From a virus (taxonomy: Duplodnaviria; Heunggongvirae; Uroviricota; Caudoviricetes): a stretch of DNA of 64,000 bases. Position numbers and translations under genes: made by a program. Numbering within the stretch: position 1 is the stretch's first letter; each line of letters starts with the position of its first letter. The notes under the pieces are model-generated. The model searched no databases, was not told where the DNA came from, and saw only the letters and a list, made by a program, of their open reading frames with translations. The stretch lies in IMG/VR virus record IMGVR_UViG_2913112809_000002; one strand, 5' to 3'. Shown here piece by piece: positions 2,199 to 55,152 of this stretch.

Positions 2199-2203
2199 AT
2201 ATT

Positions 2204-2278: not shown

Positions 2279-2280
2279 AA

Positions 2281-6131: not shown

Positions 6132-6148
6132 CGATACTTACCCTCAGT

Positions 6149-6355
6149 TCAACTCACAAAACGCCACGCCATTTTTGCTACAGCGACAGGCATAACACCG
6201 ATAATCACCCACAGGAAAATGCTACCGAAAAGCACACCCACCAGGTCTTTACCTTCGCCTACCAACCGGACAAAACTGCTGGCAACAACAATGAACGTCG
6301 CCACCATCCACATAGCACCGAGAATCCTCAATGCAGAGAAAATTAACTCAGCCAC
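6149..6355 (-). CDS. Small membrane protein (two predicted TM helices)
   Basis: 68 aa, hydrophobic segments MWMVATFIVVASSFV and VLFGSIFLWVIIGVMPVAVA. Confidence 0.4.
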   Translation of the reverse strand: MAELIFSALRILGAMWMVATFIVVASSFVRLVGEGKDLVGVLFGSIFLWVIIGVMPVAVAKMAWRFVS

Positions 6356-6429
6356 GATTTACCCTCCCCCCCAAATAAAAAGGCCTGCGATTACCAGCAG
6401 GCCTGTTATTAGCTCAGTGATGTAGATGG

Positions 6430-7806
6430 TCATACGTCAGCCCCTTGTGCATATCGTCTGCCACGCGCAGCAGGTGCATTTGATGCTGTGCAAATCTGTC
6501 TGGCTTCATCCTGGTCACATGCAACAAAGTGTCCGTTGCAGAACCGCTGGTAAACCGTACCAAGTGAGCCAAAACGGTTTTTCGTCACGATGATTTCAGC
6601 AAATGGCGCGGCGCTACTGTTCTCGTCATATACCGCTTCCCGATAGAGCATGATGATTGAGTCTGCGTCCTGCTCAATGCTTCCTGAATCACGCAAATCT
6701 GCGTTTGTCGGACGTTTGTTTGGTCGCTTCTCAACATCGCGCGAAAGCTGACTCAGGGAGATAACCGGTGTTTTCAGGTCTTTCGCCATCGCCTTCAGGC
6801 TTCCGGAGATGTGAGCAATTGCGAGGTCGTTGCGGTCTGCTTTCGGCTTCTCAATCAGGCCAAGATAATCCGCCATGATGAGTGACAGGTTTGGATTTTC
6901 CTGTTTGTGCCGCTCTGCGATTGAGCGAATTTCTTCGACCGATAACCGCGAGGCATCGACTACCCATACATCCAAATCTGCAAGCTGACTCATGCCGTTA
7001 GCAACACGCGCCCAGCCTTCGTCATCCATCGATGCAGGATTTCGCAGCACGCTAACCGACATCCTCCCGGCGTTGGCAATACTTCGCTCTGCAATCTGCA
7101 ATGCGCTCATTTCCATTGAGAAAATCAATACTCCGCGCCGGACGTCAGAACCAGGAATAACACGACTTGCAACGCCTTCGGCAATCTTCAGCGCCAGTTC
7201 GGTTTTCCCCATACCAGGACGAGCGGCGATAATCACCAGGTCTTCTGCGTTCATCCCTCCGGTGATGGCGTCAAGTTCTTCGATTCCGGTCTTCAGGGTA
7301 TCTGACTCTTCTCCGTTCCTCAGACGCCTGTCAAGCGTGTCAGTGTAGTCAGTGATGATTTCCCCTAACCGTACAGGTTTAACCTCGTCACGGGGCTTTC
7401 TGATGGCTGAAAGACGCTTTACAAACTCATCCATCGCCTGACTCGATGCGTCGATGGTTCCGCTCTGAATTGGTTCACGCATTTCATCCATGATTTCCAG
7501 CACCAGACGGCGGTGATAGTTATCCGCGACCATTCCGGCATATCCCTTCAGGTTTGCGGCACTCGGGCAGTTTTTGCTGGTCATCAGGATTGACGTGAAA
7601 TGCTCCTCTCCGCACGCCTCGGCAACCATCAGCGCGTCGATTAGGTTTCTGTTTCGCGCCTGCTTCCGGATAACCTCGAAGGCTTTCCGGTAGAGCGGAA
7701 TTGAAAACGCTTCCGGCTCAAGCGTTGCCAGAACGTCACTGGCAGTTGGTGTTAATCCACCAATCAGCAGGCCACCGATAACGCTCGCTTCGATATCCTG
7801 TTTCAT
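6430..7806 (-). CDS. Replicative DNA helicase (DnaB-like, P22 gene 12-type)
   Basis: 458 aa with Walker A GMGKTE and DnaB C-terminal motifs. Confidence 0.9.
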
Positions 7807-8750
7807 GCAATCCCCCTGTCTGCAAACTTTCCTTCCCGTACTCCCGTTAACGAATCTTCCCTCAGCAGGTAATCAAAATCTGCCGTCCAGCCCGTGTCGT
7901 TGTCTCCGAAGTAAAACGGCTTTGCCTGATGCACAAACGCCCTGACATACGCTCTGAAACCGTCCACATTTGGCGTTTTCAGTTGCGGGATGATTTTCTT
8001 CAGGCGGCGTTTGCGTTTCTCGTTGACCGCAACAGCGTGTGGCAGTCTGTCACCGACTTCGGTGTTGTAGGCGTTCAGGAAGGATTCGTAGTCGATTCGT
8101 TCTGCCTTGCGACGTTCAGGTTTAACCTGCCCATCGCCTCCCCCATTGGGGGGTAGGGGGGTATTATTTATATTCTTGTTAATACCTTCTTGTTCATGAT
8201 GTGCGGTTGTTTGTGCGGCTCCATGTGCGCTTTCATGTGCGGCATGTGCCCTGAAAGCCGCGCCATTACTGGCTTCGTCATGTGCGGCTTCATGTGCGGT
8301 TGTTTGTGCGGCTTCATGTGCGGGTGAATCGTCCATTTTTTGAGCATATTCATGGTAATTTGTGATGGTGATCACACGACCTTTTTGCTTCTCTCCATCA
8401 ATGGAGATCATCCCCTCTTTCACAAAAACCTGAAGCATCCGCTCAACCTGATCACGGCTTGCTGGCTTGCCATGCCTGTCGCATAACTGAAGACCTAAAT
8501 CAGCTGCTGTCACAACCAGTTGACCGGGTTGCAGATGCCATTCATGACCTTTGAAATTCGCTTTGTATGGCTTTCTGGCGGCATTCAGGAGAAGGTTTTC
8601 CCACAGGGTGCGAAGATAAACATCTTTCGCCCATGACTGTTTCAGAATGCTCCGGTACAACGGAATGTAACCAGTTTTCTGGTTCTCCATCCTGTTGCTC
8701 CTGCGCTCGTGTGCGGCGCTGAAATCGTAGATTTTTGCTGTATTGCTCAT
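7803..8750 (-). CDS. Replication initiator O-like protein (iterons inside gene)
   Basis: N-terminus [10 protein letters not shown] resembles lambda O; central AHEAA/AHGAA repeats encoded by DNA iterons. Confidence 0.75.
8190..8340. repeat. Iteron array (putative origin) inside O-like gene
   Basis: Direct repeats of catgtgcgg(c)t/gtttgtgcgg units; they also create the spurious HMKPH-repeat ORF 8168..8353. Confidence 0.55.
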
Positions 8751-8752
8751 AA

Positions 8753-9025
8753 CTACCTGCCTTGACGAAAGACCTTAAGAACATCGTTAAACTGACTTAC
8801 GGATATGTCTTCTTTGAGAAGCTTTTCCAGAAATGCGTTTGGAATGAACGTATATCCCTCCTCTTTTGGTAGAGACGGGAGCAACGCCCTCGCCTCAGCC
8901 TTCAGAAGCTCAGTTCTGGCAACTTTCACAAAAGAGATTTGAGTTCTTTCATCAATGGAACGAAGGAAGCGCAAACGCTTAGCTTCTTTGTGTGTATCAG
9001 GTGGATTAAAGCCTTTGTTTCGCAT
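8753..9025 (-). CDS. Hypothetical protein between cII-like and O-like genes
   Basis: 90-aa ORF, compact arrangement. Confidence 0.4.
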   Translation of the reverse strand: MRNKGFNPPDTHKEAKRLRFLRSIDERTQISFVKVARTELLKAEARALLPSLPKEEGYTFIPNAFLEKLLKEDISVSQFNDVLKVFRQGR

Positions 9026-9069
9026 ATAATTACCTCGTTGGATGTTGTTAAAATTCCATTTGTATTTGA

Positions 9070-9345
9070 TCAGAACGCTCGGTTGCCGCCGGGCGTTTTT
9101 TTATTGGTGAGTCCATCCAATGCATACTTAAAAGCCCTGCTAATCGGACTGATGTCTGATGCCATTCCAAAAGCACACAAGACCGAAGCAATAAATCTCC
9201 AGTCCGTTCTGCTTATCTTCGATTCATGACAGCCAATCATCTTTGCCAGACCGCGCTGGGTAAGCGTTGACAGGTTGATGAGTAAATCTGTTTCTGCGCG
9301 ATCAACGTCGCGCTGTGATAGTTTGCTGCAGCTTGTTTGTTCCAT
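9070..9345 (-). CDS. CII-like transcriptional activator
   Basis: 91 aa; HTH-like segment GLAKMIGCHESKISRTDWRF and ...NKKTPGGN resemble lambda CII; correct position. Confidence 0.5.
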   Translation of the reverse strand: MEQTSCSKLSQRDVDRAETDLLINLSTLTQRGLAKMIGCHESKISRTDWRFIASVLCAFGMASDISPISRAFKYALDGLTNKKTPGGNRAF

Positions 9346-9384
9346 TTCTTACTATTTCCATAGGTAAATAATCACTAATACCCA

Positions 9385-9420
9385 TCTTTCGATGAGCGCT
9401 TAATTAGTTACCGCGTTGTC
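9385..9420 (-). promoter_or_regulatory. Candidate nutR (boxA-like CGCTCTTTA plus hairpin with GACAA-type loop)
   Basis: Minus-strand read ccgctctttatc ... accgc-cgacaac-gcggt between cro-like and cII-like genes. Confidence 0.35.
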
Positions 9421-9451
9421 GGCGGTGCAGATTGATAAAGAGCGGTGTTAC

Positions 9452-9679
9452 TTATGCAGCCAGAAGGTTCTTTTTGCTTATTTCAAGCATTTCGCTTGCT
9501 TGATATTTGCCACCAGAAATCTCTTCGATTTTTGATGCGTATTTAGTTTTCCCAAAAAACTCAGTCTTAGGGAGGAAGCCGTTTTTGAGCCACTTATAGA
9601 CAGCCCTTTCGCTAACTCCACAAGCCTTCGCAACTTCAGGGATGCCGACACCTTTAATCGGCTCATCAAGATTTTGCAT
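9452..9679 (-). CDS. Cro-like repressor (HTH)
   Basis: Divergent from cI; MQNLDEPIKGVGIPEVAKACGVSERAVYKWLKNG...; start set at second Met because upstream Met lies inside operator palindrome. Confidence 0.5.
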   Translation of the reverse strand: MQNLDEPIKGVGIPEVAKACGVSERAVYKWLKNGFLPKTEFFGKTKYASKIEEISGGKYQASEMLEISKKNLLAA

Positions 9680-9757
9680 AGGAATATCCTTTTTCGTACT
9701 TTCAGTACGCATTATGATTGAACTGAAAGTTTTTGCAAGTGCTTTAGTATCGTACTC
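9680..9757. promoter_or_regulatory. OR operator/promoter region (PR/PRM)
   Basis: Perfect palindrome cgtactttcagtacg at 9695..9709 plus half-sites actgaaagt (9722..9730) and cgtac (9751..9755) between cro-like and cI. Confidence 0.55.
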
Positions 9758-10465
9758 ATGGTTCAGAATGAAAAAGTGCGCAAAGAATTCGCCCAGCGGC
9801 TAGCGCAAGCCTGTAAAGAAGCTGGTCTTGATGAACATGGTAGGGGGATGGCCATAGCCCGTGCCCTTTCTCTTTCGTCCAAAGGCGTTAGCAAATGGTT
9901 TAATGCTGAGTCTTTACCGCGTCAGGAAAAAATGAATGCGCTTGCGAAATTTCTAAACGTTGATGTTGTTTGGCTTCAGCACGGCACTTCGTTAAATGGA
10001 GCGAATGATGAAGATACTCTTTCATTTGTTGGCAAATTAAAAAAAGGGTTAGTGCGCGTGGTTGGTGAGGCAATTCTTGGTGTTGATGGTGCCATCGAGA
10101 TGACCGAAGAGCGCGATGGGTGGCTCAAAATTTATAGCGATGATCCTGATGCCTTTGGTCTTCGTGTGAAAGGAGACAGCATGTGGCCCAGAATAAAATC
10201 AGGAGAATATGTACTCATTGAGCCTAACACCAAAGTATTCCCGGGTGATGAGGTGTTTGTCAGAACCATCGAAGGACACAACATGATCAAGGTTCTTGGC
10301 TATGACAGAGATGGAGAATACCAATTTACAAGCATCAACCAGGACCACAGACCAATAACGTTGCCTTATCATCAAGTAGCCAAAGTGGAGTATGTGGCTG
10401 GTATTCTGAAGCAATCTCGCCATCTGGATGACATCGAGGCAAGGGAGTGGCTGAGAGATTCCTGA
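9758..10465 (+). CDS. cI: CI repressor (HTH + S24 LexA-like peptidase)
   Basis: 235 aa; N-terminal HTH, C-terminal GDSM...K autocleavage domain. Confidence 0.9.
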   Translation: MVQNEKVRKEFAQRLAQACKEAGLDEHGRGMAIARALSLSSKGVSKWFNAESLPRQEKMNALAKFLNVDVVWLQHGTSLNGANDEDTLSFVGKLKKGLVRVVGEAILGVDGAIEMTEERDGWLKIYSDDPDAFGLRVKGDSMWPRIKSGEYVLIEPNTKVFPGDEVFVRTIEGHNMIKVLGYDRDGEYQFTSINQDHRPITLPYHQVAKVEYVAGILKQSRHLDDIEAREWLRDS

Positions 10466-10571
10466 CATCAAAGTCATAGAGTGAGTTTTCTAGTTAGAAA
10501 TAGTGGTCAATGGGTACGCGTAGGTAAACCGTTTAAACATAATAAACAAGCCATATAAGATGAAATAAATC

Positions 10572-10928
10572 ATGAGCGATAAAGAGTTTAAAGTACTTAA
10601 TTTTGATGACTTTGCTCATTATTTGAGCACATTGAACGGCGAACAAATTTGTCCAATGTGTATGGAAGAGTCATGGACGCTTTTCACCCCAAACAAGCTT
10701 CCTCCAGAAGACGAGGATAGGTATGTAATAAGTTCTATCCCAGGATCACTTATTTCAAGTAAAAGACCTGAAAAATCAAATCTCTTCTTCAGAAGTTACA
10801 ACAACGATGTCCTCCTGATGCAATGCAGAAATTGTGGATACATGGCATTTTTTAATTATAAAAAAGTCCAAGAAAACCTTGAGTCAGGGGATTATATAAA
10901 AAAAAGAAGATATAGATATGGTGGATGA
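10572..10928 (+). CDS. Hypothetical zinc-ribbon protein (cargo at rexA position)
   Basis: 118 aa, CPMC and CRNC pairs; AT-rich; stop overlaps next start (ATGA). Confidence 0.55.
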   Translation: MSDKEFKVLNFDDFAHYLSTLNGEQICPMCMEESWTLFTPNKLPPEDEDRYVISSIPGSLISSKRPEKSNLFFRSYNNDVLLMQCRNCGYMAFFNYKKVQENLESGDYIKKRRYRYGG

Positions 10929-11410
10929 AAATGACAAATCAGAAGACTGATTTCTTCCGTCCAATGGAGTATGATAACAAATATGAGCAATTTGGTGTTA
11001 TAGAAGCACACAGGAATGGTCGCTCTACTCCGTCATATCAGCCAGGCACCATTGGTAAGGATATCCCGGTTATTATTGCGCATAAGTTAAGCGATCAACC
11101 AGCAGAGGGTGAGTCACAGATGAGCGTAAAATCACTGTCACGTTGGGAGTTTTGGCTAGGGATTTTCACTGCCATTATTGGGATATTTTCCATTGTTGTA
11201 GGAGCAACGTGGACAATTTCTAATAATATCAATGATAAGATTAATGCATCAAGACAAGAGCTAACTGGGAACATCCAATCCAGTCGAGCAGAAATCACGG
11301 CAAGAATTGACAGGCTCGAAGATAAGATGGAGTCTAATTTCAAAGAAACATCATCGAGCCTGTTCAAAATACAGGCAATTCTAGAAGCAAAATCCGACAA
11401 AGAAAAATAA
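10925..11410 (+). CDS. Hypothetical single-pass membrane protein with coiled-coil C-terminus (cargo at rexB position)
   Basis: 161 aa, TM segment WEFWLGIFTAIIGIFSIVVGATW, heptad-like C-terminus; followed by terminator. Confidence 0.55.
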   Translation: MKMTNQKTDFFRPMEYDNKYEQFGVIEAHRNGRSTPSYQPGTIGKDIPVIIAHKLSDQPAEGESQMSVKSLSRWEFWLGIFTAIIGIFSIVVGATWTISNNINDKINASRQELTGNIQSSRAEITARIDRLEDKMESNFKETSSSLFKIQAILEAKSDKEK

Positions 11411-11416
11411 GAAAGT

Positions 11417-11440
11417 CCGGCCTCAGCGCCGGGTTTTCTT
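11417..11440 (+). terminator. Intrinsic terminator after cI/cargo operon
   Basis: ccggc-ctcagc-gccgg hairpin followed by gttttcttt. Confidence 0.55.
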
Positions 11441-11594
11441 TGCCTCACGTTCCCCACACCTAATAACACATTAACCAATTGTATTTATTGAAAAATTGAT
11501 AGATACAACTTGCTAAACCACGAAATTCTGATCCCTGCCGCATAACCTTCATCCGCAACATTTACAAAAATAAATTTCCTTATATATCAAAATC

Positions 11595-11665
11595 ATATTT
11601 CGTAGAGTTAATAAACCACAAAAATTTCGTACCAATAGTTCTTGATAATGTCGAACTATTGGTTC
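11595..11665. promoter_or_regulatory. OL/PL region
   Basis: Half-sites ttcgtag and ttcgtac matching OR half-site ttcgtac; 11-bp inverted repeat accaatagttc/gaactattggt at 11631..11663. Confidence 0.4.
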
Positions 11666-11714
11666 ATTATTATCGCCATCAGCAGGAAGCTGGAAGCCAA
11701 ACGGAACAGATTGG

Positions 11715-11751
11715 CATGCTCTTTAACTTCGATGGGGCGCTGACAAAGCGC
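11715..11751 (+). promoter_or_regulatory. nutL (boxA gctctttaa; boxB gcgctgacaaagcgc, P22-type)
   Basis: boxB hairpin GCGC-TGACAAA-GCGC at 11737..11751 upstream of N. Confidence 0.6.
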
Positions 11752-11870
11752 AAACAGATACCAAACGAGATGGGTTTGGCGGTGATGTGAATTGCAGCTG
11801 CAACGACAGCAACCAGAAGATCAGCATCTGGCGCATCACCACCAAAGCCATTTCACATGAGGAAAACATC

Positions 11871-12206
11871 ATGACGGTAATCGTGTACGGAAAATCAACA
11901 TTTGCAGGAAATGCCAAAACTCGCCGTCATGAGCGGCGCAGAAAGCTTGCTATTGAGCGTGATGCTATCTGTAACATCATTGATTCTATCTTCGGCACAG
12001 ATAGTGAGGAACCTGTTCAGGAGGCCCCAAGAAAGCGTTTAAGCCTTTCTGAAAAAGCAATATCACTCGGAAGCCTTCGCTGCAAGAAGGCAGAAGAAGT
12101 CGAGCGTAAACAGAACCGTATTTACTACAGCAAGCCACGCAGTGAAATGGGTGTGACCTGTGTCGGTCGCCAGAAAATGAAATTAGGCAGCAAACCACTT
12201 ATTTGA
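11871..12206 (+). CDS. N: Antiterminator N (P22 gene 24-like arginine-rich motif, lambda-like C-terminus)
   Basis: ARM GNAKTRRHERRRKLAIERD; C-terminus YSKPRSEMGVTCVGRQKMKLGSKPLI resembles lambda N; SD gagga before ATG. Confidence 0.75.
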   Translation: MTVIVYGKSTFAGNAKTRRHERRRKLAIERDAICNIIDSIFGTDSEEPVQEAPRKRLSLSEKAISLGSLRCKKAEEVERKQNRIYYSKPRSEMGVTCVGRQKMKLGSKPLI

Positions 12207-12216
12207 GGACTGATAC

Positions 12217-12459
12217 ATGAGAGTAAAAACTATGGGCGCAAGCCCATTAAGCGGTCGTATTTTTCAAGGAACATTAAACACTGAAAAAGGAATGTGGGTA
12301 GGAAAAAAAGAAGATGTAACCGAACAGGCAGTTAAGGCAGTAACTGAACACCTGATGATAAAAGACCGGAAATATGCATACGAAACGAATGATGGCAAAT
12401 GGGTGATAATAATGCATCAACTGGTTGATGAATTACCAGAAGAGTTTATTGCTGATTAA
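12217..12459 (+). CDS. Hypothetical protein
   Basis: 80-aa ORF directly after N, AT-rich. Confidence 0.4.
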   Translation: MRVKTMGASPLSGRIFQGTLNTEKGMWVGKKEDVTEQAVKAVTEHLMIKDRKYAYETNDGKWVIIMHQLVDELPEEFIAD

Positions 12460-12490
12460 AATTATTTTGGCATAAACAACAGAAGCGAAG

Positions 12491-12688
12491 ATGTTGACAG
12501 TTGGTAAGTCATATTCAACTAAAAATGGAAAGACATTTAGTTGTGAAAAAGATATTGGAGAAATAGACACCATCTTTCCATTTGGTGGATGGGTATACAA
12601 TTCTGATGGAAGCAAAGACAGATTTGCATATTACACCAGAGGAGGTGCTTATAAACCAACCAAATCAGAATATGACTTAATTATTTAG
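12491..12688 (+). CDS. Hypothetical protein
   Basis: 65-aa ORF, AT-rich. Confidence 0.35.
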   Translation: MLTVGKSYSTKNGKTFSCEKDIGEIDTIFPFGGWVYNSDGSKDRFAYYTRGGAYKPTKSEYDLII

Positions 12689-12834
12689 CACAGAGAAGCA
12701 CTGTGTATTCATTCCAACGAGTGAATACACGGAGCAATGTCGCTCGTAACTAAACAGGAGCCGACTTGTTCTGATTATTGGAAATCTTCTTTGCCCTCCA
12801 GTGTGAGGGCAATTTTTTTGACGGAGAAATTATG

Positions 12835-13248
12835 AAAATTACAGATATTCTGGTTAATCCAGATAATTACGACCAATTCAATATCTCTACTAAATCGGTT
12901 GATTTGGGATGTGCAACTGTCAGCGCATGGCTACTTAATGGTAAACAGTTGGATAAATGCCTTGATGCACATATGACGGTTAACAGCTTCCTTGCAGAAA
13001 AGACACACTGGCAAGATGCTGGAGGGAAATATGCTGGATGGCTTGAAAGCATGGGATTTGAATATCAATCTGATGAAGGTTGGTGGAGCCTCATAGCTGT
13101 AACGCCTGAGACAATAGAATGCTTCGTTAAATACTCAAACGACGATGACTATAAACACCAGGTAGATTCTGCGATAGAAAGATATAGAAGAAAATCATTC
13201 AACCACGAAATATCATCAGTTCTTGATTTCATAGAAGTATTCAAATAA
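12835..13248 (+). CDS. Hypothetical protein
   Basis: 137 aa from MKITDILVNPDNYDQ..., SD ggag before ATG; preceded by hairpin and T-run at 12788..12823. Confidence 0.45.
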   Translation, partial: KITDILVNPDNYDQFNISTKSVDLGCATVSAWLLNGKQLDKCLDAHMTVNSFLAEKTHWQDAGGKYAGWLESMGFEYQSDEGWWSLIAVTPETIECFVKYSNDDDYKHQVDSAIERYRRKSFNHEISSVLDFIEVFK

Positions 13249-13331
13249 GCCGCCAAGAGCGGCTTTACCGCATACCAATAATGCTTCACCCGAGGCATTT
13301 CCGTTATGTGTAAATAAATAAGGAGCACACC

Positions 13332-13472
13332 ATGCAATATGTCATTGCAGGGTGGCCTGTTGCTGGCTGCCCTTCCGAATCTTTACTTGAACGAATCACC
13401 CGTAAATTACGTGACGGATGGAAACGCCTTATCGACATACTTAATCAGCCGGGAGTTCCAAAAAATGGATAA
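13332..13472 (+). CDS. cIII: CIII (protease FtsH inhibitor)
   Basis: Manual translation MQYVIAGWPVAGCPSESLLERITRKLRDGWKRLIDILNQPGVPKNG matches lambda CIII. Confidence 0.85.
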   Translation: MQYVIAGWPVAGCPSESLLERITRKLRDGWKRLIDILNQPGVPKNG

Positions 13473-13578
13473 AACACTTATGGCTATCCAGACTAAATTC
13501 ACTATCGCCACTTTTATTGGCGATGAAAAGATGTTTCGTGAGGCCGTCGAAGCCTACAGGAAATGGAGGTCAAAATGA
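13465..13578 (+). CDS. kil: Kil-like host-killing protein
   Basis: MDKTLMAIQTKFTIATFIGDEKMFREAVEAYRKWRSK; overlaps cIII end as in lambda. Confidence 0.55.
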   Translation: MDKTLMAIQTKFTIATFIGDEKMFREAVEAYRKWRSK

Positions 13579-13763
13579 TTCCGGTAGAACTGGCGAAAAC
13601 TCCAGAGTTAAGTCGATTAAAAAGAGAATATCACATTGCTGAGGCTCGTTACTGGCGTAAAGCGGGAGATAAATCAAAGAAACAACTTTGTTTATGGCAG
13701 GCACAAAGAGAGCGCATGAATGAGCGCGAGTTTCTTTCCTCCCCATCCGAATTACCATTCTGA
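13575..13763 (+). CDS. Hypothetical protein
   Basis: ATGA overlap with kil, SD ggagg. Confidence 0.35.
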   Translation: MIPVELAKTPELSRLKREYHIAEARYWRKAGDKSKKQLCLWQAQRERMNEREFLSSPSELPF

Positions 13764-13771
13764 GGCAAATT

Positions 13772-14452
13772 ATGGGAACTGCGACATTAATACTCGGTGA
13801 GTCTGGCACCGGAAAATCAACCAGCATGAGAAATATCAATCCCGAGGAAGCAATACTTATAAAACCAATAGGCAAGCCGCTACCATTTAAATCAAAAGAC
13901 TGGCTTGCATGGGATGCCAGAGCAAAAAAAGGAACCGTAGTTACCACTGACAAATGGGACGTAATAGTTGCCGTAATTAAGCGTGCTCACGAATACGGGA
14001 AAAGAATCGTTATTGTTGATGACTTCCAGTATGTGATGAGCAATGAGTTTATGCGCCGCTCAGAAGAAAAATCGTTTGATAAATTTACTGAGATAGGCCG
14101 CCACGCATGGGAGGTGATTAAGGCTGCACAGGATGCGCCTGATGACCTGAGAGTCTATTTTCTTGCCCATACCGAAGAAACCCCTATGGGGCGTGTGAAA
14201 ATGAAGACTATCGGCAAAATGCTGGACGAGAAAATCACTGTCGAAGGCATGTTTACTATAGTTCTTCGCACTCTTACCCGCGATGACCAGTTCTTTTTCA
14301 CCACGAAAAACAACGGTGCAGACACTGTTAAATCCCCAATGGGAATGTTTGATTCCAATGAGATTGATAACGATCTCTCTTTCGTCGATGCCACTGTTTG
14401 TGATTACTACGGCATCAATAATGTTCATCAAATTAAGGAAAACGCCGCATGA
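13772..14452 (+). CDS. P-loop ATPase (AAA_24/Sak4-like recombination-associated ATPase)
   Basis: Walker A GESGTGKS, Walker B RIVIVDDF; position of recombination module. Confidence 0.55.
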   Translation: MGTATLILGESGTGKSTSMRNINPEEAILIKPIGKPLPFKSKDWLAWDARAKKGTVVTTDKWDVIVAVIKRAHEYGKRIVIVDDFQYVMSNEFMRRSEEKSFDKFTEIGRHAWEVIKAAQDAPDDLRVYFLAHTEETPMGRVKMKTIGKMLDEKITVEGMFTIVLRTLTRDDQFFFTTKNNGADTVKSPMGMFDSNEIDNDLSFVDATVCDYYGINNVHQIKENAA

Positions 14453-15036
14453 GCAACGTGATTTTTACTTATAACGAAGAAGCAGCACTGACCGCAGGAC
14501 AAGGTGGTTTTATTAATGAAACTGGCGCTCATATTATTACCATTACTGAAGCAGAACTAAAGCAATCAGAAAAAGGAGCCAAATTTATTGAGTTTTCTGG
14601 AGAATCCGACGACGGACGTAAAATCCAATATCTTAGCGTTTGTGTTCAGAAAAATGACGGCACGGAAAACAAATTTGGCGCAAATGTCGTTCACGCCATG
14701 ATGGGGTGTGCCGGGATTGGGCAATTAACGCAACATATGGTTTCCGCCAGTAAATTTGTTGCACCTGAATTTCATGGAAAGAAAATCGGGTTAGTGCTCC
14801 AGAAAGTATTAACCACAAACAAAAAGACTGGCGCAGACAGCTACCAGATGGAAATACGCATCCCGTTTATTGCACAAACAGGTCAAACCCTTAAAGAAAA
14901 GGCGGAAGGCAAGCAACCAGAAACTATCGCCAACATGGTTGCCAGCCTCAAAGATAAAGACAATCGCTCTAAAAACGTAAGCCAGAATCATGCAGATGAT
15001 TATGGTTACAGCCAGAACGATTACCCTCCTTTCTGA
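14449..15036 (+). CDS. Hypothetical protein (DUF669-like partner of AAA_24 ATPase, by recollection)
   Basis: 195 aa, translationally coupled to the ATPase. Confidence 0.4.
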   Translation: MSNVIFTYNEEAALTAGQGGFINETGAHIITITEAELKQSEKGAKFIEFSGESDDGRKIQYLSVCVQKNDGTENKFGANVVHAMMGCAGIGQLTQHMVSASKFVAPEFHGKKIGLVLQKVLTTNKKTGADSYQMEIRIPFIAQTGQTLKEKAEGKQPETIANMVASLKDKDNRSKNVSQNHADDYGYSQNDYPPF

Positions 15037-15059
15037 TTATTGAAAATAAGGCTCCCATT

Positions 15060-15356
15060 ATGCCAGCGCCTCTGTATGGTGCGGATGACCCGCGCCGCTG
15101 TTCCGGCAATTCCGTATTGGAGGTGCTGGATAAATTCAGAAAAAACTACGACCTGATAATGTCGCTACCGCAGGAAACGAAAGAGGAAAAGGAATTTCGC
15201 CATTGTATATGGCTTGCAGAGAAAGAAGAACGCGAGCGAATTTACCAGACATTAATCCGACCATTCCGCAAAGCCACATATACCCACTTCCCTGAATATA
15301 TCGACTCGCGCCTACGTAATTACCGCTCACGCTATGGCGCTATCAGTAATGACTGA
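15060..15356 (+). CDS. Hypothetical protein
   Basis: 98-aa ORF. Confidence 0.35.
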
Positions 15357-15543
15357 GGAATTTACCATGAGAGGACTTGCATACAATCCCGGCATTCTTC
15401 CGGCAGAAATGATTATTCGCCAACGCGTAAAGCCAATGCCATCAAGAGAGGAATTACTTAAGAGAAATAGTTTCGGTTCTGTTAACGACAACAGATATCT
15501 TGAAATGATTTTGAGGAGTAAGAAGGATTATGTCAAAAAATGA
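15334..15543 (+). CDS. Hypothetical protein
   Basis: 69-aa ORF. Confidence 0.3.
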
Positions 15544-16108
15544 CATTTCATATGAATACCTCATTAGCAACATTCACTACGATAAAGAAACTGGGGTTTT
15601 CAAGAAGATAATTAAATCAAATAATGGGGATATAATTGGTTTCAAACCAACTGGCTGTACGCACTCGATGGGATACATAAGGATATATATTAATAAAAAA
15701 TGGTATTTAGCGCACAGACTAGCTTGGTTATATGTTACCGGGAAATGGCCAGTAAATGTAATTGATCACATCAACAGAAATAAAGCTGACAACAGGTTTA
15801 TTAACCTACGAGATGTCTCCAGTAGGGAAAACAATAGCAATACAAGTAGAAATAAAGGAACTGAAATAGGCACAGAAAGGTGTGCTTATGGATGGAGAGC
15901 ATACATAGGTGTTAATGGAAAACTACATCACCTTGGCTCATATGCAACATGTGATGGTGCAAAATATGCGTATGCTCTAGCAAAATATCAAGTAGAAATA
16001 TATGGTTACCTGCGCCCCACACCAATCGATTGCAGAAAATTAAATTACGGAAACAGGGGGAATCGTAATGGAAATCCTAAATCAAACCGTCGCAAGTTCC
16101 ATCAGTGA
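15530..16108 (+). CDS. HNH homing endonuclease
   Basis: [16 protein letters not shown]...[20 protein letters not shown] motif; AT-rich insertion-like. Confidence 0.75.
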
Positions 16109-16631
16109 ATCAAAACAAATATCTGAATGCGATGTGGCGGAGTGGGAAGAAATGAAACAAATGTCACTAATTGAGATGGATGGATTTCTGAAAGGTAAAT
16201 GCATCCCAAGTGATTTAAAGGTTAACGAAACAAACGCTGAATATCTGGTGCGTAAATTTGCTGAAGCAGAGGCCAAGTGCGCGGCGCTGGCAGCGGAGAA
16301 TGCGAGACTGAAGGTGATGTGTGAGGACCGCCGCAGGTTCATCATGAAAGGGGTGCAACTGGGGTATATCAAGGTGCCAAAAGCGGAAACAGATCCGGAC
16401 CTTGAGACAATTCGCATTGCTATATCACCACAAAAGCCCATTCCAGCCACCGATGCTTTCCTGGCTGAAGTACGGGCGCAGGGCGTGGAGATGCTGGCAA
16501 AAAATCATCAGAGTATCGTCAATGCACTTAAGGGAGATTCTTTATTTTCTGATGGTGAATACCGACATGCAGCTATTGTTTCCGCAGCTGTATATTTCGC
16601 CGCCCAGCTTCGCAAAGGAGGCAACCAGTGA
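16068..16631 (+). CDS. Ea22-like protein, N/middle part
   Basis: Shares ALAAENARLK..CDDRRRFIM..VQLG.IK...ETIRIAISPQKP motif with 62794..63372. Confidence 0.45.
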   Translation: MEILNQTVASSISESKQISECDVAEWEEMKQMSLIEMDGFLKGKCIPSDLKVNETNAEYLVRKFAEAEAKCAALAAENARLKVMCEDRRRFIMKGVQLGYIKVPKAETDPDLETIRIAISPQKPIPATDAFLAEVRAQGVEMLAKNHQSIVNALKGDSLFSDGEYRHAAIVSAAVYFAAQLRKGGNQ

Positions 16632-17113
16632 CTGGACATGCAACAATCCTCGACATGTGCTGTGGCAGTCGCATGTTCTGGTTCGATAAGAATGACGACC
16701 GGGCGATATTTAGCGATATCAGAAAAGAAGAGCACACATTGTGTGATGGACGACGCCTGATTATCAGTCCTGACCTGATAGCAGATTTTCGAGCATTACC
16801 ATTTGCAGACGCATCGTTTCCGGTTGTTGTATTCGACCCTCCGCATCTTGAGCGTGTTGGTGATAAAGCCTGGATGGGAAAGAAATATGGACGGCTGAAT
16901 AAAGATACCTGGCGTGATGATTTGCGGCAGGGATTTAAAGAAGCCTTTCGTGTGTTGTGGCCACATGGCGTTATGATTTTTAAATGGAATGAAACACAAA
17001 TACCTGTTCGCCAGATATTGGCACTGACCGACAGAAAGCCTGTTATCGGTCAACGAACAGGAAAGGGTGACAAGACCCACTGGATTATTTTTATGAAGGA
17101 GGGCAACCAGTGA
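16628..17113 (+). CDS. Putative DNA methyltransferase
   Basis: SAM-binding-like DMCCGSRMF and catalytic-like VVVFDPPH motifs; GTG start. Confidence 0.5.
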   Translation: MTGHATILDMCCGSRMFWFDKNDDRAIFSDIRKEEHTLCDGRRLIISPDLIADFRALPFADASFPVVVFDPPHLERVGDKAWMGKKYGRLNKDTWRDDLRQGFKEAFRVLWPHGVMIFKWNETQIPVRQILALTDRKPVIGQRTGKGDKTHWIIFMKEGNQ

Positions 17114-17310
17114 GCAAGATTGACTACCAGGAATTGGCTGCTGCTAACGCTTTCTTGGCGGATGTGCGGGCTGGGGCGTTTAACGACCTTTGCGCGGCGT
17201 TTGTCAGGAACGCAAAAATTGCAGGACTGGACGATGGCGATCTCGTTACGGTGAAAGAAGCGACCGATGCTCTGCTGCATTGTGTGGAACAGCTTCGCGC
17301 TCCAGAATAA
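17110..17310 (+). CDS. Ea22-like protein, short C-terminal form
   Basis: MSKIDYQ...AFNDLCAAFVRNAKIAGLDD...DALLHCVEQLRAPE homologous to ends of 62794..63372. Confidence 0.45.
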   Translation: MSKIDYQELAAANAFLADVRAGAFNDLCAAFVRNAKIAGLDDGDLVTVKEATDALLHCVEQLRAPE

Positions 17311-17840
17311 TTAAATTTAGTACTGTAAATAAAATTTAATCCTTAACCGGAGGGATTTCTGCACCCTCAGAACATCAGGAGGCCGCCCGAAAGGGCGGTA
17401 ATAAAAATGGCAGAATTAACTAAAGAATGGTTGCAACAAACAATTACTGATATTCAGGTCAATTGAGGTGAGAAACGCGGATGGAAAATTGTTTAGTGCC
17501 GTATCTGGTGCGGTTCGGGGCGTCGTCGTTAACAGTTGTGCCGCATGTCCTGGTGGCTGACAACGTCATCCCGGCACCGAAACGTCGTACCGGTATTGCA
17601 GCGGCACGCCGTGCAGCAAAGAAACGCAGGAGAGCAAAGCGATGAAAAACCGTAAAGCAAAACTGCTTACAGCAAAGCCCGGGCAGCTTATCCGCATCTC
17701 AAATCGACTTGTTGTTCGTTATGCGCCTTCTGGCCTTGCCAGGTGGTTACCAACGCATTTTTACGGTGTCAGGCGACGTAGAAGTGCGGCACAAAACCGC
17801 TGGAGAAATCACGGTTCTAGGCAAATTAAATGGGAGTGAT

Positions 17841-18059
17841 ATGACTACACTATTCAGGAAAAATTATCCGCGAAAGAGCAGAGCAACAGAATTCCTGTTT
17901 CTCATTCTGTTTATCGTGTTGATGATACCGATATCCCCGTTAATTCTGGTATGGGGAATCGGGAAAATAATTGAGCCAGTTATTGAATTGTATAACGACG
18001 TGGTATGGGCGTCGTTCAACGCACTACACAATAAAATTAATCCGTATAAGGAAAACTGA
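17841..18059 (+). CDS. Small membrane protein
   Basis: 72 aa from MTTLFRKNYP..., TM FLFLILFIVLMIPISPLILVWGIG, SD before ATG. Confidence 0.35.
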   Translation: MTTLFRKNYPRKSRATEFLFLILFIVLMIPISPLILVWGIGKIIEPVIELYNDVVWASFNALHNKINPYKEN

Positions 18060-18060
18060 T

Positions 18061-18591
18061 ATGACCACTATTACGAGAGAAAGCGCGGAGATTAAATCAT
18101 TCATCACTGGCTTCCTGAGCGACGCGGCGCACGATAACCAATCGTCAAACAGTCTGCTTGCTAATGTGTTTCGTATCGCACTGGCATCGCTGGAAGCAGA
18201 GCCGGTGGCGTGGAAGGCAACCTTCACGCAAATTGACAATGAATATAATACGTTCACTGCTCTGTATTCTGACAAAGCAGAAGTCGAACGGTGGGTGCGA
18301 CTGCATGAAATAGGTGACTTTCGGGCAGAAATAACACCGCTTTATACAGCCCAACCAGCGCCGGTAGCTCCAGATGGTTGGATAAGCTGTAGTGATGCAG
18401 TTCCTGCGGAATACTGCGATGTGATTCTTCGCGATGATCTCGGGAATGTATTCCCCGGTTCCTGGGATAAGGTTTTTTGCCCCATTCGTGGCGGGAATAA
18501 GATGGCTTTTGTGGACAAAGACGGCATCGAAGTAGAGAGCTCAACTCACTGGATGCCGCTACCGGAACCACCGCAGGAGGTGAATCGATGA
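18061..18591 (+). CDS. DUF551-like early-left protein
   Basis: MTTITRESAEIKSF...IALASLEAEPVAWK...; paralog of 63470..64000. Confidence 0.55.
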   Translation: MTTITRESAEIKSFITGFLSDAAHDNQSSNSLLANVFRIALASLEAEPVAWKATFTQIDNEYNTFTALYSDKAEVERWVRLHEIGDFRAEITPLYTAQPAPVAPDGWISCSDAVPAEYCDVILRDDLGNVFPGSWDKVFCPIRGGNKMAFVDKDGIEVESSTHWMPLPEPPQEVNR

Positions 18592-18755
18592 CCTGGCCTG
18601 AAGCATTCACAACGGTAGGAATTGCAATGGCGGTGGCGCTGGTGGTGTATTCGATTTGCCGCTGGGGTTGACGTAATTACTAATCCGGGGCTATATTTCC
18701 GACGCGCCAGCAAAATCTGGCGTCGGGATTAGCACCCCGGATGTTTACGGAGCGA

Positions 18756-18781
18756 TATGAGACGCGCCCGCGTCTTTTTTT
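18756..18781 (+). terminator. Intrinsic terminator ending early-left operon
   Basis: agacgcg-ccc-cgcgtct hairpin followed by T7. Confidence 0.55.
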
Positions 18782-18945
18782 CATATCGTTTGCACAGTCA
18801 CATTCGCGATTTATGGCGGGCTGTGTGGGGGAGCCGAAAGGCTCGCCGGTTTCCGTACCCGGTAGTGCTAACCCCGCACAGTTCGCCACCACGATGATTA
18901 GCACCTGACGGTGGCGATAATGTCCAAATGTACGGAGTAATCGTT

Positions 18946-19504
18946 ATGACCACTCAGATTTCTGTCGAAACTCTTTCCCCAATTACACACAACCAAATTC
19001 CCGTTATCACTACCGAGTTACTGGCACAGCTTTACTGTACCGAGATCAACAACATCAAAGTAAATTACACCCGTAATTCCGAGCGTTTTGTTGAGGGTAA
19101 ACACTTTTTCAAGATTGTTGGTGATGAGTTGAAAAAATTTGCGGGTTACTTTAAGTAACTCACAAACGCCTGTTTCCCCCAAAACCCGCTCCCTCATCCT
19201 CTGGACAGAACGCGGAGCAGCCCGCCACGCAAAAATGCTGGAAACCGAGCAGGCGTGGGAAGTGTTCGAAAAACTGGAAGACTGTTATTTCAGTCAGAAA
19301 CGCCCGGAAGAAAAAGCACCGGATTTTATGCCACGCCGCTTTCTTCTCACTCTGGTCAATAACCAGTGGTATGTTGAGCCTGTGTCTGCTGATGCGTTTG
19401 TGGCAACGCCGGACTCACTGGTGGCCAGGCTTCAGGCCGAGAGATATCTGTTCGATCAGCAGAGCATAAAGGAGATCATCCAGACCTGCCTGAAGATGAT
19501 TTAA
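18946..19504 (+). pseudogene. ORF6N/Rha-type antirepressor-like gene split over two frames
   Basis: First frame ends ...GDELKKFAGYFK*, second frame continues ...RSLILWTERGAARHAKMLETEQAWEVFEKLED. Confidence 0.35.
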
Positions 19505-22744: not shown

Positions 22745-22820
<76 letters not shown>

Positions 22821-22823
22821 TAT

Positions 22824-22898
<75 letters not shown>

Positions 22899-27789: not shown

Positions 27790-28035
27790 ATGACAGCTGC
27801 TAAAGAGCAGATTGAATATGAGCTAAATGTATTCTTCGCGTCCGCCCTTGGTGATGTGTTTAAAAGTTGCCGACTGGCTGAAAGCGTATTGGATTACCAG
27901 ATTTCTACTGTTAGTTTTCCAACGGAAAAAAACGCCTGGCTGGAGCTAGGTGAATTACCCGTGATTATCGAGTTGTCTAACGGACGTCGCTTTGAGATTA
28001 GTGCGTCTGAATGGTTGCAAATCACACCGCTTTAA
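27790..28035 (+). CDS. Hypothetical protein near cos
   Basis: 81-aa ORF upstream of cos. Confidence 0.3.
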   Translation: MTAAKEQIEYELNVFFASALGDVFKSCRLAESVLDYQISTVSFPTEKNAWLELGELPVIIELSNGRRFEISASEWLQITPL

Positions 28036-28111
28036 ATTAAGCCCGCTGCCCACCTTGGCTACAGGCATACGCTTAGTGGCTGGGTCCTTTCCGGCGATCC
28101 GGCAGGCTACG

Positions 28112-28123
28112 GGGCGTCAGGCG
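28112..28123. other. cos: cosN-like cohesive-end site (gggcgtcaggcg), with lambda-like cosB flank
   Basis: Flank cgcgggttttcgctatttatgaaaaatttccggtttaaggcg matches lambda left end as recalled; 12-mer differs from lambda GGGCGGCGACCT. Confidence 0.55.
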
Positions 28124-28300
28124 CGCGGGTTTTCGCTATTTATGAAAAATTTCCGGTTTAAGGCGTTTCCGTTCTTCTTCGTCGTAACTTAATGTTTTTA
28201 TTTAAAACACCCCCTGAAAAGAAAGGAAACGACAGGTGCTGAAAACGGGCTTTTTGGCCTCTGTCGTTTCCTTTCTCTGTTTTTGTCCGTGGAATGAACA

Positions 28301-28820
28301 ATGGAAGTCAACAAAAAGCAGCTGGCTGACATTTTCGGCGCGAGTATCCGTACCATTCAGAACTGGCAGGAGCAGGGAATGCCCGTTCTGCGAGGCGGTG
28401 GGAAGGGTAATGAGGTGCTTTATGACTCTGCCGCCGTCATAAAATGGTATGCCGAAAGGGATGCTGAAATTGAGAACGAAAAGCTGCGCCGGGAGGTTGA
28501 AGAACTGCGACAGGCCAGCGAGACAGATCTCCAGCCAGGGACTATTGAGTACGAACGCCATCGACTTACGCGTGCGCAGGCCGACGCACAGGAGCTGAAA
28601 AATGCCAGAGACTCCGCTGAAGTGGTGGAAACTGCATTCTGTACTTTCGTGCTGTCGCGGATCGCAGGTGAAATTGCCAGTATTCTCGACGGGATCCCCC
28701 TGTCGGTGCAGCGGCGTTTTCCGGAACTGGAAAACCGACATGTTGATTTCCTGAAACGAGATATCATCAAAGCCATGAACAAAGCATCCGCGCTGGATGA
28801 ACTGATACCGGGGTTGCTGA

Positions 28821-28846
<26 letters not shown>
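28301..28846 (+). CDS. Nu1: Terminase small subunit Nu1
   Basis: MEVNKKQLADIFGASIRTIQNWQEQGMPVLRGGGKGNEVLYD... matches lambda Nu1. Confidence 0.95.
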
Positions 28847-32527
<3,681 letters not shown>

Positions 32528-38240: not shown

Positions 38241-38656
38241 GTTTTGCCCTGAAACTGGCGCGTGAGATGGGGCGACCCGACTGGCGCGCCATGCTTGCCG
38301 GGATGTCATCCACGGAGTATGCCGACTGGCACCGTTTTTACAGTACCCATTATTTTCATGATGTTCTGCTGGATATGCACTTTTCCGGGCTGACGTACAC
38401 CGTGCTCAGCCTGTTTTTCAGCGATCCGGAGATGCATCCGCTGGATTTCAGTCTGCTGAATCGGTGTGAGGCTGACGAAGAGCCTGAAGATGATGTGCTG
38501 ATGCAGAAAGCGGCAGGGCTTGCCGGAGGCGTCCGCTTTGGTCCGGACGGGAATAAAGTTATCCCCGCTTCCCCGGATGTGGCGGACATGACGGAGGATG
38601 ACGTAATGCTGATGACAGTATCAGAAGGGATCGCAGGAGGAGTCCGGTATGGCTGA
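37818..38656 (+). CDS. G-T: Tail assembly chaperone GT, made by programmed -1 frameshift at G GGA AAG (38214..38220)
   Basis: Slippery heptamer gggaaag at end of G; T frame (38222..38656) has no independent RBS. Confidence 0.75.
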
Positions 38657-41209
38657 ACCGGTAGGCGATCTGGTCGTTGATTTAAGTCTGGATGCGGCCA
38701 GATTTGACGAGCAGATGGCCAGAGTCAGGCGTCATTTTTCCGGTACGGAAAGTGATGCGAAAAAACAGCGGCAGTCGTTGAACAGTCGCTGAGCCGACAG
38801 GCGCTGGCTGCACAGAAAGCGGGGATTTCCGTCGGGCAGTATAAAGCCGCCATGCGAATGCTGCCTGCACAGTTCACCGACGTGGCCACGCAGCTTGCAG
38901 GCGGGCAAAGCCCGTGGCTGATCCTGCTGCAACAGGGTGGTCAGGTTAAGGACTCCTTCGGCGGGATGATCCCCATGTTCCGGGGGCTTGCCGGTGCGAT
39001 CACCCTGCCGATGGTCGGGGCCACCTCGCTGGCGGTGGCGACCGGTGCGCTGGCGTATGCCTGGTATCAGGGTAACTCAACCCTGTCCGATTTCAACAAA
39101 ACGCTGGTCCTTTCCGGTCATCAGTCAGGTCTGACGGCAGATCGTATGCTGGTCCTGTCCAGAGCCGGACAGGCGGCAGGGCTGACGTTTAACCAGACCA
39201 GCGAGTCACTCAGCGCACTGGTTAAGGCGGGGGTAAGCGGTGAGGCTCAGATTGCGTCCATCAGCCAGAGTGTGGCGCGTTTCTCCTCTGCATCCGGTGT
39301 GGAGGTGAACAAGGTCGCTGAAGCCTTCGGGAAGCTGACCACAGACCCGACGTCGGGGCTGACGGCGATGGCACGCCAGTTCCATAACGTGACGGCGGAA
39401 CAGATTGCGTATGTTGCTCAGTTGCAGCGTTCCGGCGATGAAGCCGGGGCATTGCAGGCGGCGAACGAGGCCGCAACGAAAGGGTTTGATGACCAGACCC
39501 GACGCCTGAAAGAGAACATGGGCACGCTGGAAACCTGGGCAGACAGGACAGCACGGGCATTCAAATCCATGTGGGATGCGGTGCTGGATATTGGTCGTCC
39601 TGATACCGCTCAGGAGATGCTGATTAAGGCAGAGGCTGCGTTTAAGAAAGCGGACGACATCTGGAATCTGCGCAAGGATGATTATTTTGTTAACGATGAA
39701 GCGCGGGCGCGTTACTGGGATGATCGTGAAAAGGCCCGTCTTGCGCTTGAAGCCGCCCGAAAGAAGGCTGAACAGCAGAGTCAACAGGACAAAAATGCGC
39801 AGCAGCAGAGCGATACCGAAGCGTCACGGCTGAAATATACCGAAGAGGCGCAGAAGGCTTACGAACGACTGCAGACGCCGCTGGAGAAATATACCGCCCG
39901 TCAGGAAGAACTGAATAAGGCACTGAAAGACGGGAAAATCCTGCAGGCAGATTACAACACGCTGATGGCGGCGGCGAAAAAGGATTATGAAGCGACGCTG
40001 AAAAAGCCGAAACAGTCCGGCGTGAAGGTGTCTGCGGGCGATCGTCAGGAAGACAGTGCTCATGTTGCCCTGCTGACGCTTCAGGCAGAACTCCGGACGC
40101 TGGAGAAACATGCCGGAGCGAATGAGAAAATCAGCCAGCAGCGCCGGGATTTGTGGAAGGCAGAAAGTCAGTTCGCGGTACTGGAGGAGGCGGCACAACG
40201 TCGCCAGCTGTCCGCACAGGAGAAATCCCTGCTGGCGCATAAAGATGAGACGCTGGAGTACAAACGCCAGCTGGCTGCACTTGGTGACAAGGTTACGTAT
40301 CAGGAGCGCCTGAACGCGCTGGCGCAGCAGGCGGATAAATTCGCACAGCAGCAACGGGCAAAACGGGCAGCCATTGAGGCGAAAAACCGGGGGCTGACTG
40401 ACCGGCAGGCAGCGCGGGACGCCACGGAACAGCGCCTGAAGGAACAGTATGGCGATAATCCTCTGGCGCTGAATAACGTCATGTCAGAGCAGAAAAAGAC
40501 CTGGGCGGCTGAAGACCAGCTTCGCGGGAGCTGGATGGCAGGCCTCAAGTCTGGCTGGAGTGAGTGGGAAGAGAGCGCCACGGACAGTATGTCGCAGGTT
40601 AAAAGTGCTGCCACGCAGACCTTTGATGGTATTGCACAGAATATGGCGGCGATGCTGACCGGCAGTGAGCAGAACTGGCGCAGCTTCACCCGTTCCGTGC
40701 TGTCCATGATGACAGAAATTCTGCTTAAGCAGGCAATGGTGGGGATTGTCGGGAGTATCGGCAGCGCCATTGGCGGTGCTGCCAGTAGTGGCGCATCAGC
40801 GTCTGGTGGTACAGCCATTCAGGCAGCTGCGGCGAAATTCCATTTTGCGACCGGGGGATTTACGGGAACCGGCGGCAAATATGAGCCTGCGGGGATTGTT
40901 CACCGTGGTGAATTTGTCTTCACGAAGGAGGCAACCAGCCGGATTGGCGTGGGGAATCTCTACCGGCTGATGCGCGGCTATGCCACCGGTGGTTATGTCG
41001 GTACACCGGGCAGCCTGGCGGACAGCCGGTCGCAGGCGTCCGGGAAGTTTGAGCAGAATAACCATGTGGTGATTAATAACGACGGCACGAACGGTCAGAT
41101 AGGTCCGGCTGCTCTGAAGGCGGTGTATGACATGGCCCGCAAGGGTGCCCGTGATGAAATTCAGACACAGATGCGTGATGGTGGCCTGTTCTCCGGAGGT
41201 GGACGATGA
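38649..41209 (+). pseudogene. H: Tail tape measure protein H, frame broken in poly-A tract near 38760..38765
   Basis: Frame from ATG 38649 (MAEPVGDLVVDL...SGTESDAKK) hits a stop at 38788; homology resumes in -1 frame (...RQALAAQKAGISVGQYKAAMRMLPAQ...); six A here versus seven in lambda as recalled. Confidence 0.75.
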
Positions 41210-53817: not shown

Positions 53818-53846
53818 TATTTTTGCGAAAAGATTTTCTGAATTGT

Positions 53847-55086: not shown

Positions 55087-55152
55087 GTGGTCACGTGCCT
55101 TACAGCATGACCGCCGCCACTATAGCTGGTGGACGGCGATCAGGGTTGAACA

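Follow-up and report, generated by a model that had tools for sequence, protein, structure and literature searches.

A lambda-type cos site carrying a rare natural cohesive-end allele shared mainly with PICI satellites

Among lambda-like phages, differences at bp 7-12 of the cohesive-end sequence cosN are common (Feiss et al. 2015, PMC4669245). N15 and phiD326 vary at bp 9 and 12 and Gifsy-1 at bp 8, 9 and 11, and lambda TerL was found to be equally good on the lambda and the N15 cosN (PMC4669245). Many mutations at bp 7-12 had minimal effect, G2C cut the yield about 10-fold while the symmetric C11G was without effect, and a mismatch of two bases between the ends led to an approximately fourfold lower yield (PMC4669245). 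According to the same study, selection acts on cosQ, on the CG flanks and on the left half of cosN, the CG pairs beside both nicks being highly conserved, and packaging-mediated exchange of cos was demonstrated as well (PMC4669245). In regard to cosB, TerS bound at this site positions TerL, R3 was placed at bp 50-65, and the spacing from cosN to cosB is critical (PMC9026076). Another 12-mer, GGGCGGCGCGCT, is inferred to be used by mEp213 and LLS (PMC12315714, where a dedicated cosN survey, Vahanian et al. 2017, Virology 509:140, is also cited). Our literature search retrieved no data on the effects of mutations at bp 6, and no searchable paper contained as text either of the two 12-mers discussed below, GGGCGTCAGGCG and GGGCGGAAGGCG, while the survey of Vahanian et al. 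2017 may still list the former, which is the allele of the locus described here.

The locus lies within a window of 64,000 nt, which is the whole stretch of viral DNA analysed. On its plus strand, the cosQ heptamer GGGTCCT (28082-28088), the signal for the termination of packaging (PMC9026076, PMC4669245), is positioned 30 bp upstream of cosN bp 1. It is followed by the cosQ-cosN spacer TTCCGGCGATCCGGCAGGCTACG (28089-28111, +), whose terminal conserved CG precedes the top-strand nick, by the cohesive-end 12-mer GGGCGTCAGGCG (28112-28123, +), identified by alignment and recurring in other genomes, and by the aligned, conserved CG after the position of the bottom-strand nick (28124-28125, +). 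The context of the nicks thus reads TACG, GGGCGTCAGGCG, CGCG, with the two CG pairs 12 bp apart. Further downstream, the cosB elements R3, a TerS binding site (28160-28175, +; bp 49-64 counted from cosN bp 1), R2, an inverted R sequence (AGAAAGGAAACGACAG, 28220-28235, -), and R1 (CTGTCGTTTCCTTTCT, 28261-28276, +) are all identical to lambda. The terminase genes come next, Nu1 (TerS, 181 aa, 28301-28846, +) with its start codon at bp 190, and A (TerL, 641 aa, 28821-30746, +), with 178/181 and 637/641 residues, respectively, identical to lambda. The four changes in gpA are S21A, S269G, V377L and T466I. Pfam searches on identical genes at another locus (L209) recovered Phage_Nu1 for Nu1, and GpA_ATPase together with GpA_nuclease for A. 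Genes W, B, C, D, E, FI, FII, Z, U, V, G, T, M, L, K, I and J keep the colinear order, each at full length, and show 82-99% identity to lambda. The original prediction had described the region upstream of Nu1 as matching the lambda left end and the terminase genes as nearly identical to those of lambda, and both descriptions agree with the matching cosQ, CG flanks and R3/R2/R1, with the ~97% identity of cos outside the 12-mer, and with the Nu1 and gpA comparisons.

The 12-mer itself departs from this similarity. As the lambda reference we used the derivative DE3, whose record annotates a 12-base 'cos site', and aligned it with window positions 28030-28310. The lambda counterpart at exactly the cosN position is GGGCGGCGACCT, and GGGCGTCAGGCG occupies the same alignment columns with zero gap and zero offset, between flanks which equal lambda on both sides (left, TACG; right, CGCGGGTTTTCGCTATTTATG). 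Substitutions are located at bp 6, 8, 9, 10 and 12, while bp 1-5, 7 and 11 are unchanged; at bp 6, directly after the five identical positions, the window holds T and lambda G. Across the whole left end (bp 1-199), the window departs from lambda at 11 positions, 5 of them inside the 12-mer and 6 across the other 187 bp (Fisher one-sided p = 1.2e-4), which makes the 12-mer a hotspot of differences within an otherwise ~97% identical cos. The rotational symmetry of cosN is also affected, as it extends to 8/16 bp, among them the flanks and the G2/C11 pair, compared to 10/16 in lambda; relative to lambda, the symmetric pairs 3/10 and 6/7 were lost and 4/9 was gained.

An offset or hidden cosN of the lambda type was considered and rejected. 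GGGCGTCAGGCG occurs a single time in the 64,000-nt window, and so does the combination of cosQ with cosN flanks. The lambda 12-mer GGGCGGCGACCT is absent from the whole window, and a search of the whole window for it allowing up to two mismatches gave no match near a cos-like context. The predicted departure of the 12-mer from lambda therefore holds in the same register and at the only such site. Judged by its sequence, the site is a lambda-type cos with a rare natural allele of the cohesive end.

The frequency of this allele was addressed in two collections. For complete E. coli genomes, 46-base probes were built so that any 28-base seed has to cross the variable core, and IMG/VR was scanned with a pattern that held the flanks constant and left the 12-mer open, yielding at least 120 loci, to which four annotated loci were added; the resulting allele counts rest on exact-flank patterns, with clonally related genomes counted separately. 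Some kind of lambda-like cos region was present in 4,039 of the 5,426 complete E. coli genomes, and the probe for GGGCGTCAGGCG matched in about 61 of the 5,426. In a targeted scan, exact GGGCGTCAGGCG was found in 14 IMG/VR contigs. The sister allele GGGCGGAAGGCG is commoner, with 51 IMG/VR contigs and about 155 of the 5,426 complete genomes. Among the matches listed for the IMG/VR pattern and the four annotated loci, at least 116 were lambda 12-mers, accompanied by minor alleles. A scan for alleles with a base other than A at bp 9 disclosed further rare forms, GGGCGGCAGGCG, GGGCGTCAGACG, GGGCGGCAGACG, GGGCGGCTGACG, GGGCGGAAGCGT and GGGCGGAAGGCT, of which GGGCGGCAGGCG represents a one-step intermediate, a single change away from GGGCGTCAGGCG.

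Over all surveyed alleles, bp 1-5 and both CG flanks are invariant and bp 7-12 vary, with the G2/C11 pair retained in every allele but one. At bp 6, most surveyed alleles hold G, two hold T and one holds A. The cosQ heptamer was in register and at the same distance in 202 of the 205 surveyed cos sites. GGGCGTCAGGCG was found in at least four different flank contexts. Moreover, the spacer haplotype of the window, TTCCGGCGATCCGGCAGGCTACG, accompanies the lambda 12-mer at 10 loci, the sister allele at 12 and the window allele at 3; such shuffling of 23-bp spacer haplotypes among 12-mer alleles indicates reassortment. Since GGGCGTCAGGCG recurs at the cos of many independent elements, it is neither an error nor a one-off product of decay.

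A genome scan at the species level returned 9 matches, 3 of them non-enteric, all with the lambda 12-mer, and is thus uninformative for the variant. The exact lambda cosN with its flanks was present in Raphidiopsis brookii D9, in an Aeromicrobium sp. and on a plasmid of Alicyclobacillus fastidiosus, and these non-enteric copies may be vector contamination by lambda, cosmid or fosmid sequences.

Among deposited phage genomes, none was found to carry GGGCGTCAGGCG, and GGGCGGAAGGCG is present in phages YDC107_1 and PhiR46_1. The sister allele has the same bp 1-5 and 8-12, the same flanks and the same lambda-type Nu1 and A as the window, from which it differs in having GA instead of TC at bp 6-7. 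The host given in the PhiR46_1 record is ECOR13, not the strain implied by the phage name, which suggests that this phage was propagated; our literature search found no paper describing the PhiR phages. GGGCGGAAGGCG also resides on E. coli plasmids of ~46 kb (NZ_CP055252, NZ_CP101200 and NZ_CP101226), as well as in CP025712 (YDC107_1), which is classified in Ravinvirus with the N15-like phages. This suggests that the ~46-kb plasmids and YDC107_1 are plasmid prophages with lambda-type Nu1/A and a GGGCGGAAGGCG cosN.

The 15 other loci with exact GGGCGTCAGGCG, comprising the 14 IMG/VR contigs and E. coli C21, were classified one by one. Twelve of the 15 are satellite islands of the PICI type, devoid of a large terminase, in which genes for an E-like capsid protein (41% identity to lambda E) and a D-like protein lie upstream, followed by an AlpA-like HTH gene, cos, and a gene for a Nu1-like TerS with 36% or 71% identity. 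Lambda-type GGGCGTCAGGCG loci resembling the window are limited to two contigs and probably a third one (L121, L136 and, probably, L127), while the lambda-type locus L200 has a 12-mer one base off GGGCGTCAGGCG. In E. coli C21, the PICI island is situated between rcnR and thiM (L205, 11227-21001). In E. coli Res13-Lact-PEB20-37-A (L207, 11007-21606), the PICI interrupts gene E of a lambda-like prophage at approximately codon 80, a layout which corresponds to the published helper-embedded PICI of the 11capE type, site E:Phage_cap_E:80 (PMC10111431). The published 11capE is said to be without terS (PMC10111431), whereas the present islands encode a Nu1-like TerS. Several IMG/VR islands occupy the same insertion point in gene E of lambda-like prophages as the one in L207, near codon 80. 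The cos-carrying PICIs of 10-11 kb, namely those of E. coli C21 and L207 and seven from IMG/VR, contain int, Icd-like, DUF4222, primase and SSB genes, the E-like capsid, the D-like decoration and HTH genes, cos and a full-length Nu1-like TerS.

Two composite loci, L207 and L151, hold a second, co-oriented cos whose 12-mer is different from that of the first. In L207, the helper's own cos carries the lambda 12-mer and the cos of the embedded PICI carries GGGCGTCAGGCG; the two sites, at 4466 and 20001, are 15.5 kb apart. In L151, cos sites with the lambda allele and a variant allele are located at 239 and 12504. Islands without TerL must be cut by the gpA-type enzyme of a helper, and this dependence gives indirect support to the handling of GGGCGTCAGGCG by a lambda-type TerL. 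On the other hand, both cos sites of EcCICFT073 and the cos of the helper in CFT073 all have the lambda 12-mer, so the use of the EcCICFT073 cos by lambda and phi80 is uninformative for GGGCGTCAGGCG. A combined cosN and cosB probe intended for distinguishing lambda from PICI contexts in complete E. coli genomes was dropped, as the top match examined was a PICI with a lambda-like cosB.

If GGGCGTCAGGCG were functional only together with a co-adapted terminase, with a distinct cutting specificity for which standard lambda gpA/Nu1 would not suffice, residues of the enzyme would be expected to follow the allele. Some features point in this direction: the T466I change of the window lies in the nuclease half of gpA and is common to some sister-allele prophages, and N9D and S21A are enriched on sister-allele backgrounds. 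When variable gpA residues were tabulated against the allele in 67 full-length gpA genes situated beside typed cos sites, no residue segregating with the cosN allele was detected among these genes, and every variable residue occurred on both lambda-allele and variant backgrounds. This includes residue 466, which is T in 28 and I in 10 genes with the lambda allele, I in 13 and T in 13 genes with the sister allele, and T in the lambda-type locus L200, which carries GGGCGTCAGACG. The enrichment near the 5'-end of A is expected from physical linkage. Likewise, no Nu1 residue tracked the cosN allele, since the exact Nu1 protein of the window is found beside the lambda 12-mer in two records, CP104526.1 and an ENA contig, as well as beside GGGCGTCAGGCG in two others, each 100% identical to the window. 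Furthermore, the GGGCGTCAGGCG PICI of L207 sits in a helper prophage with the lambda allele at its own cos, and no cosN specificity was observed between lambda and N15 (PMC4669245). Altogether, we regard the requirement for a co-adapted terminase as very unlikely.

The state of the element that carries the site raises another possibility, that cos decayed in a defective, rearranged prophage, is no longer cut, and that its 12-mer is functionally meaningless. Gene H (38649-41209 of the window) has a deletion of 1 bp in an A-run at ~38758-38763 (A6 compared to A7 in lambda), shifting the frame after codon 39 and leading to a stop near codon 48, while the remainder, in the other frame, is 97.5% identical to lambda. 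The deletion could be either a true inactivating mutation or a homopolymer sequencing error. With the tape-measure gene frameshifted, this prophage may not be capable of producing virions alone. The same reading could draw on an inverted lambdoid early/lysis segment abutting the late region, a separate int/immunity segment after the tail fibres, the concentration of differences in the 12-mer, and the lack of an isolated phage with the allele. However, decay would not yield the same 12-mer in ~60 genomes and in several flank contexts, and it would not spare cosQ, the CG flanks, bp 1-5 and R3/R2/R1. In addition, full length has been retained by Nu1, by A and by the other head and tail genes, and the allele is shared by PICIs, which spread only through packaging. 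A dead relic is consequently an unlikely explanation. The chance that the 12-mer stems from a sequencing or assembly artefact is negligible: the source is a draft contig and one homopolymer indel exists elsewhere, but the 12-mer differs by five substitutions and zero indels, and the identical sequence was recovered from an independent Logan assembly based on a different run, as well as from dozens of further genomes.

Regarding the arrangement of the element, three segments can be recognised. Gene content defines the first one as an inverted lambdoid early/lysis segment, from 1 to ~17 kb (compared as 1-19500), with genes on both strands: the minus strand carries Rz, R, Q (with 99% identity to lambda Q), ren, DnaB-like, O-like and cII, and the plus strand carries a repressor gene, N, cIII, kil and a gene for an AAA ATPase. 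The late, cos-bearing segment (17800-53530, +) comprises DUF551, hok, DUF968, RusA, Q, tRNAs, holins, M15 endolysin, ANT, cos and the head and tail genes; in this draft contig, it is without a canonically placed immunity, replication or integrase module. The third segment (53640-64000) contains an integrase (53847-54866, -), which lies after the end of the tail-fibre assembly gene at 53530, a RecE-like exonuclease, a repressor, an O-like gene and ead/Ea22. Diverged direct repeats from the ead/Ea22 region, 84-90% identical (16283-17426 and 63039-63489), bracket a unit of ~46 kb, equal to the length of a phage genome. In the relative STEC308, which has the normal order, int is followed by ead/Ea22, DUF551, Q, lysis and terminase genes. 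Based on the repeats and on the order in STEC308, the second and third segments could be one permuted ~46-kb genome, tandem prophages or an assembly join. The whole three-segment arrangement, which has no bearing on the recognition of cos, may stem from recombination between prophages, from tandem lysogeny, from permutation of a genome or from an assembly join. A draft contig of 115.8 kb (GCA_004745255.1) matches the window with 100% identity and extends ~460 bp beyond its end. Between the tail-fibre assembly gene and the integrase, a partial 3' end of a tRNA (53640-53700, -), not called by ARAGORN, presumably matches the 3' part of tRNA-Ser(UGA) serT, and it looks like an att core, either attP-like or at a junction of tandem prophages. 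A pair of tRNAs is found after each of the two Q genes (2123-2278, -, and 22745-22898, +), Thr(tgt) and Asn(gtt) after one, and Thr(tgt) and Gly(tcc) after the other.

Taken together, the locus is probably a working-type lambda cos with a rare natural allele of the cohesive-end 12-mer, coming from a pool which reassorts among prophages and PICIs. Most likely, an ordinary lambda-type terminase cuts the window allele and generates cohesive ends different from those of lambda. In such a process, Nu1 dimers would bind R3, R2 and R1 of cosB, identical to those of lambda, and gpA would be anchored over cosN at a fixed distance. It would then nick the top strand at the junction of the preceding CG with bp 1 and, on the opposite side, the bottom strand at the junction of bp 12 with the CG that follows. 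After strand separation, predicted 5' overhangs of 12 nt would be formed, with GGGCGTCAGGCG at the left end and CGCCTGACGCCC at the right end, and cosQ, 30 bp upstream, would serve in termination at the next cos. The predicted 5'-GGGCGTCAGGCG ends follow from the cosB-to-cosN spacing, which sets the nicks, and from the tolerance of lambda TerL for changes at bp 7-12 (PMC4669245, PMC9026076). No adaptation of the enzyme would be needed, since nick placement would depend on cosB spacing and the identity of the inner and right-hand base pairs would matter little to gpA. [quoted passage not shown] The allele pool would reassort among lambda-like prophages and PICI satellites, the latter being the putative main reservoir of GGGCGTCAGGCG, and the window prophage probably gained its allele by recombination in or beside cos.

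It could further be speculated that 12-mer alleles of cosN serve as labels of compatibility when PICI satellites and lambda-like helpers exchange DNA, in view of the composite loci L207 and L151 with their two different 12-mers. If packaging of a chromosome began at one cos and ended at another with a different allele, the ends would be mismatched at 5/12 positions and would probably not circularise. Were this idea true, mismatched ends would keep the packaging series of phage and satellite apart, and the window phage would represent a rare move of a cosQ-cosN block of the PICI type into a helper-type phage, with the transfer of the block possibly occurring via packaging-mediated cos exchange (PMC4669245). 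We consider such a labelling role improbable.

Independently of this idea, cosN alleles are common to lambda-like phages and to the PICI satellites exploiting them, and for phages of the present kind, lambda cohesive-end oligonucleotides, cos-ligation assays and terminus-prediction software would assume the wrong ends. The locus also provides a data point on the tolerance of terminase, as 5/12 overhang positions, bp 6 included, vary while Nu1 and gpA are essentially unchanged. Nothing established is overturned by this, as the observations fit nick placement anchored by cosB and a right half of cosN that is not under selection. What is added are two modest points, variation at bp 6 and an allele shared mainly with PICI satellites.

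In comparison with known systems, the site stands closest to the cos of lambda, with which it shares cosQ and its distance, the CG flanks, the sequence and spacing of R3, R2 and R1, the start of Nu1 at bp 190, and a terminase that is 98% (Nu1) and 99% (gpA) identical. The canonical cohesive end GGGCGGCGACCT is common to lambda, 21 and the CFT073 elements, and the window 12-mer is not identical to it. With the PICIs of Gram-negative bacteria and the helper-embedded PICIs (PMC6092414, PMC6739421, PMC10111431), which hold most copies of GGGCGTCAGGCG at their cos, the window has the same cosQ-cosN block in common; unlike in PICIs, however, its cos leads into Nu1, A, W, B, C, D, E and the further genes up to J, and it lies outside any island of 10-20 kb with int, alpA-like and primase genes and no TerL, so it does not belong to a PICI. 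The known cosN variants of N15, phiD326, Gifsy-1 and mEp213/LLS likewise have 5' ends of 12 nt, a conserved left part and conserved flanks, as well as changes at bp 7-12 and a terminase that is not specific for cosN. Compared to them, the window allele shows more changes (5/12), among them bp 6 in the left half. Natural variation of cosN is thus already documented, and the window allele is a new example within the published rule, with the exception of bp 6.
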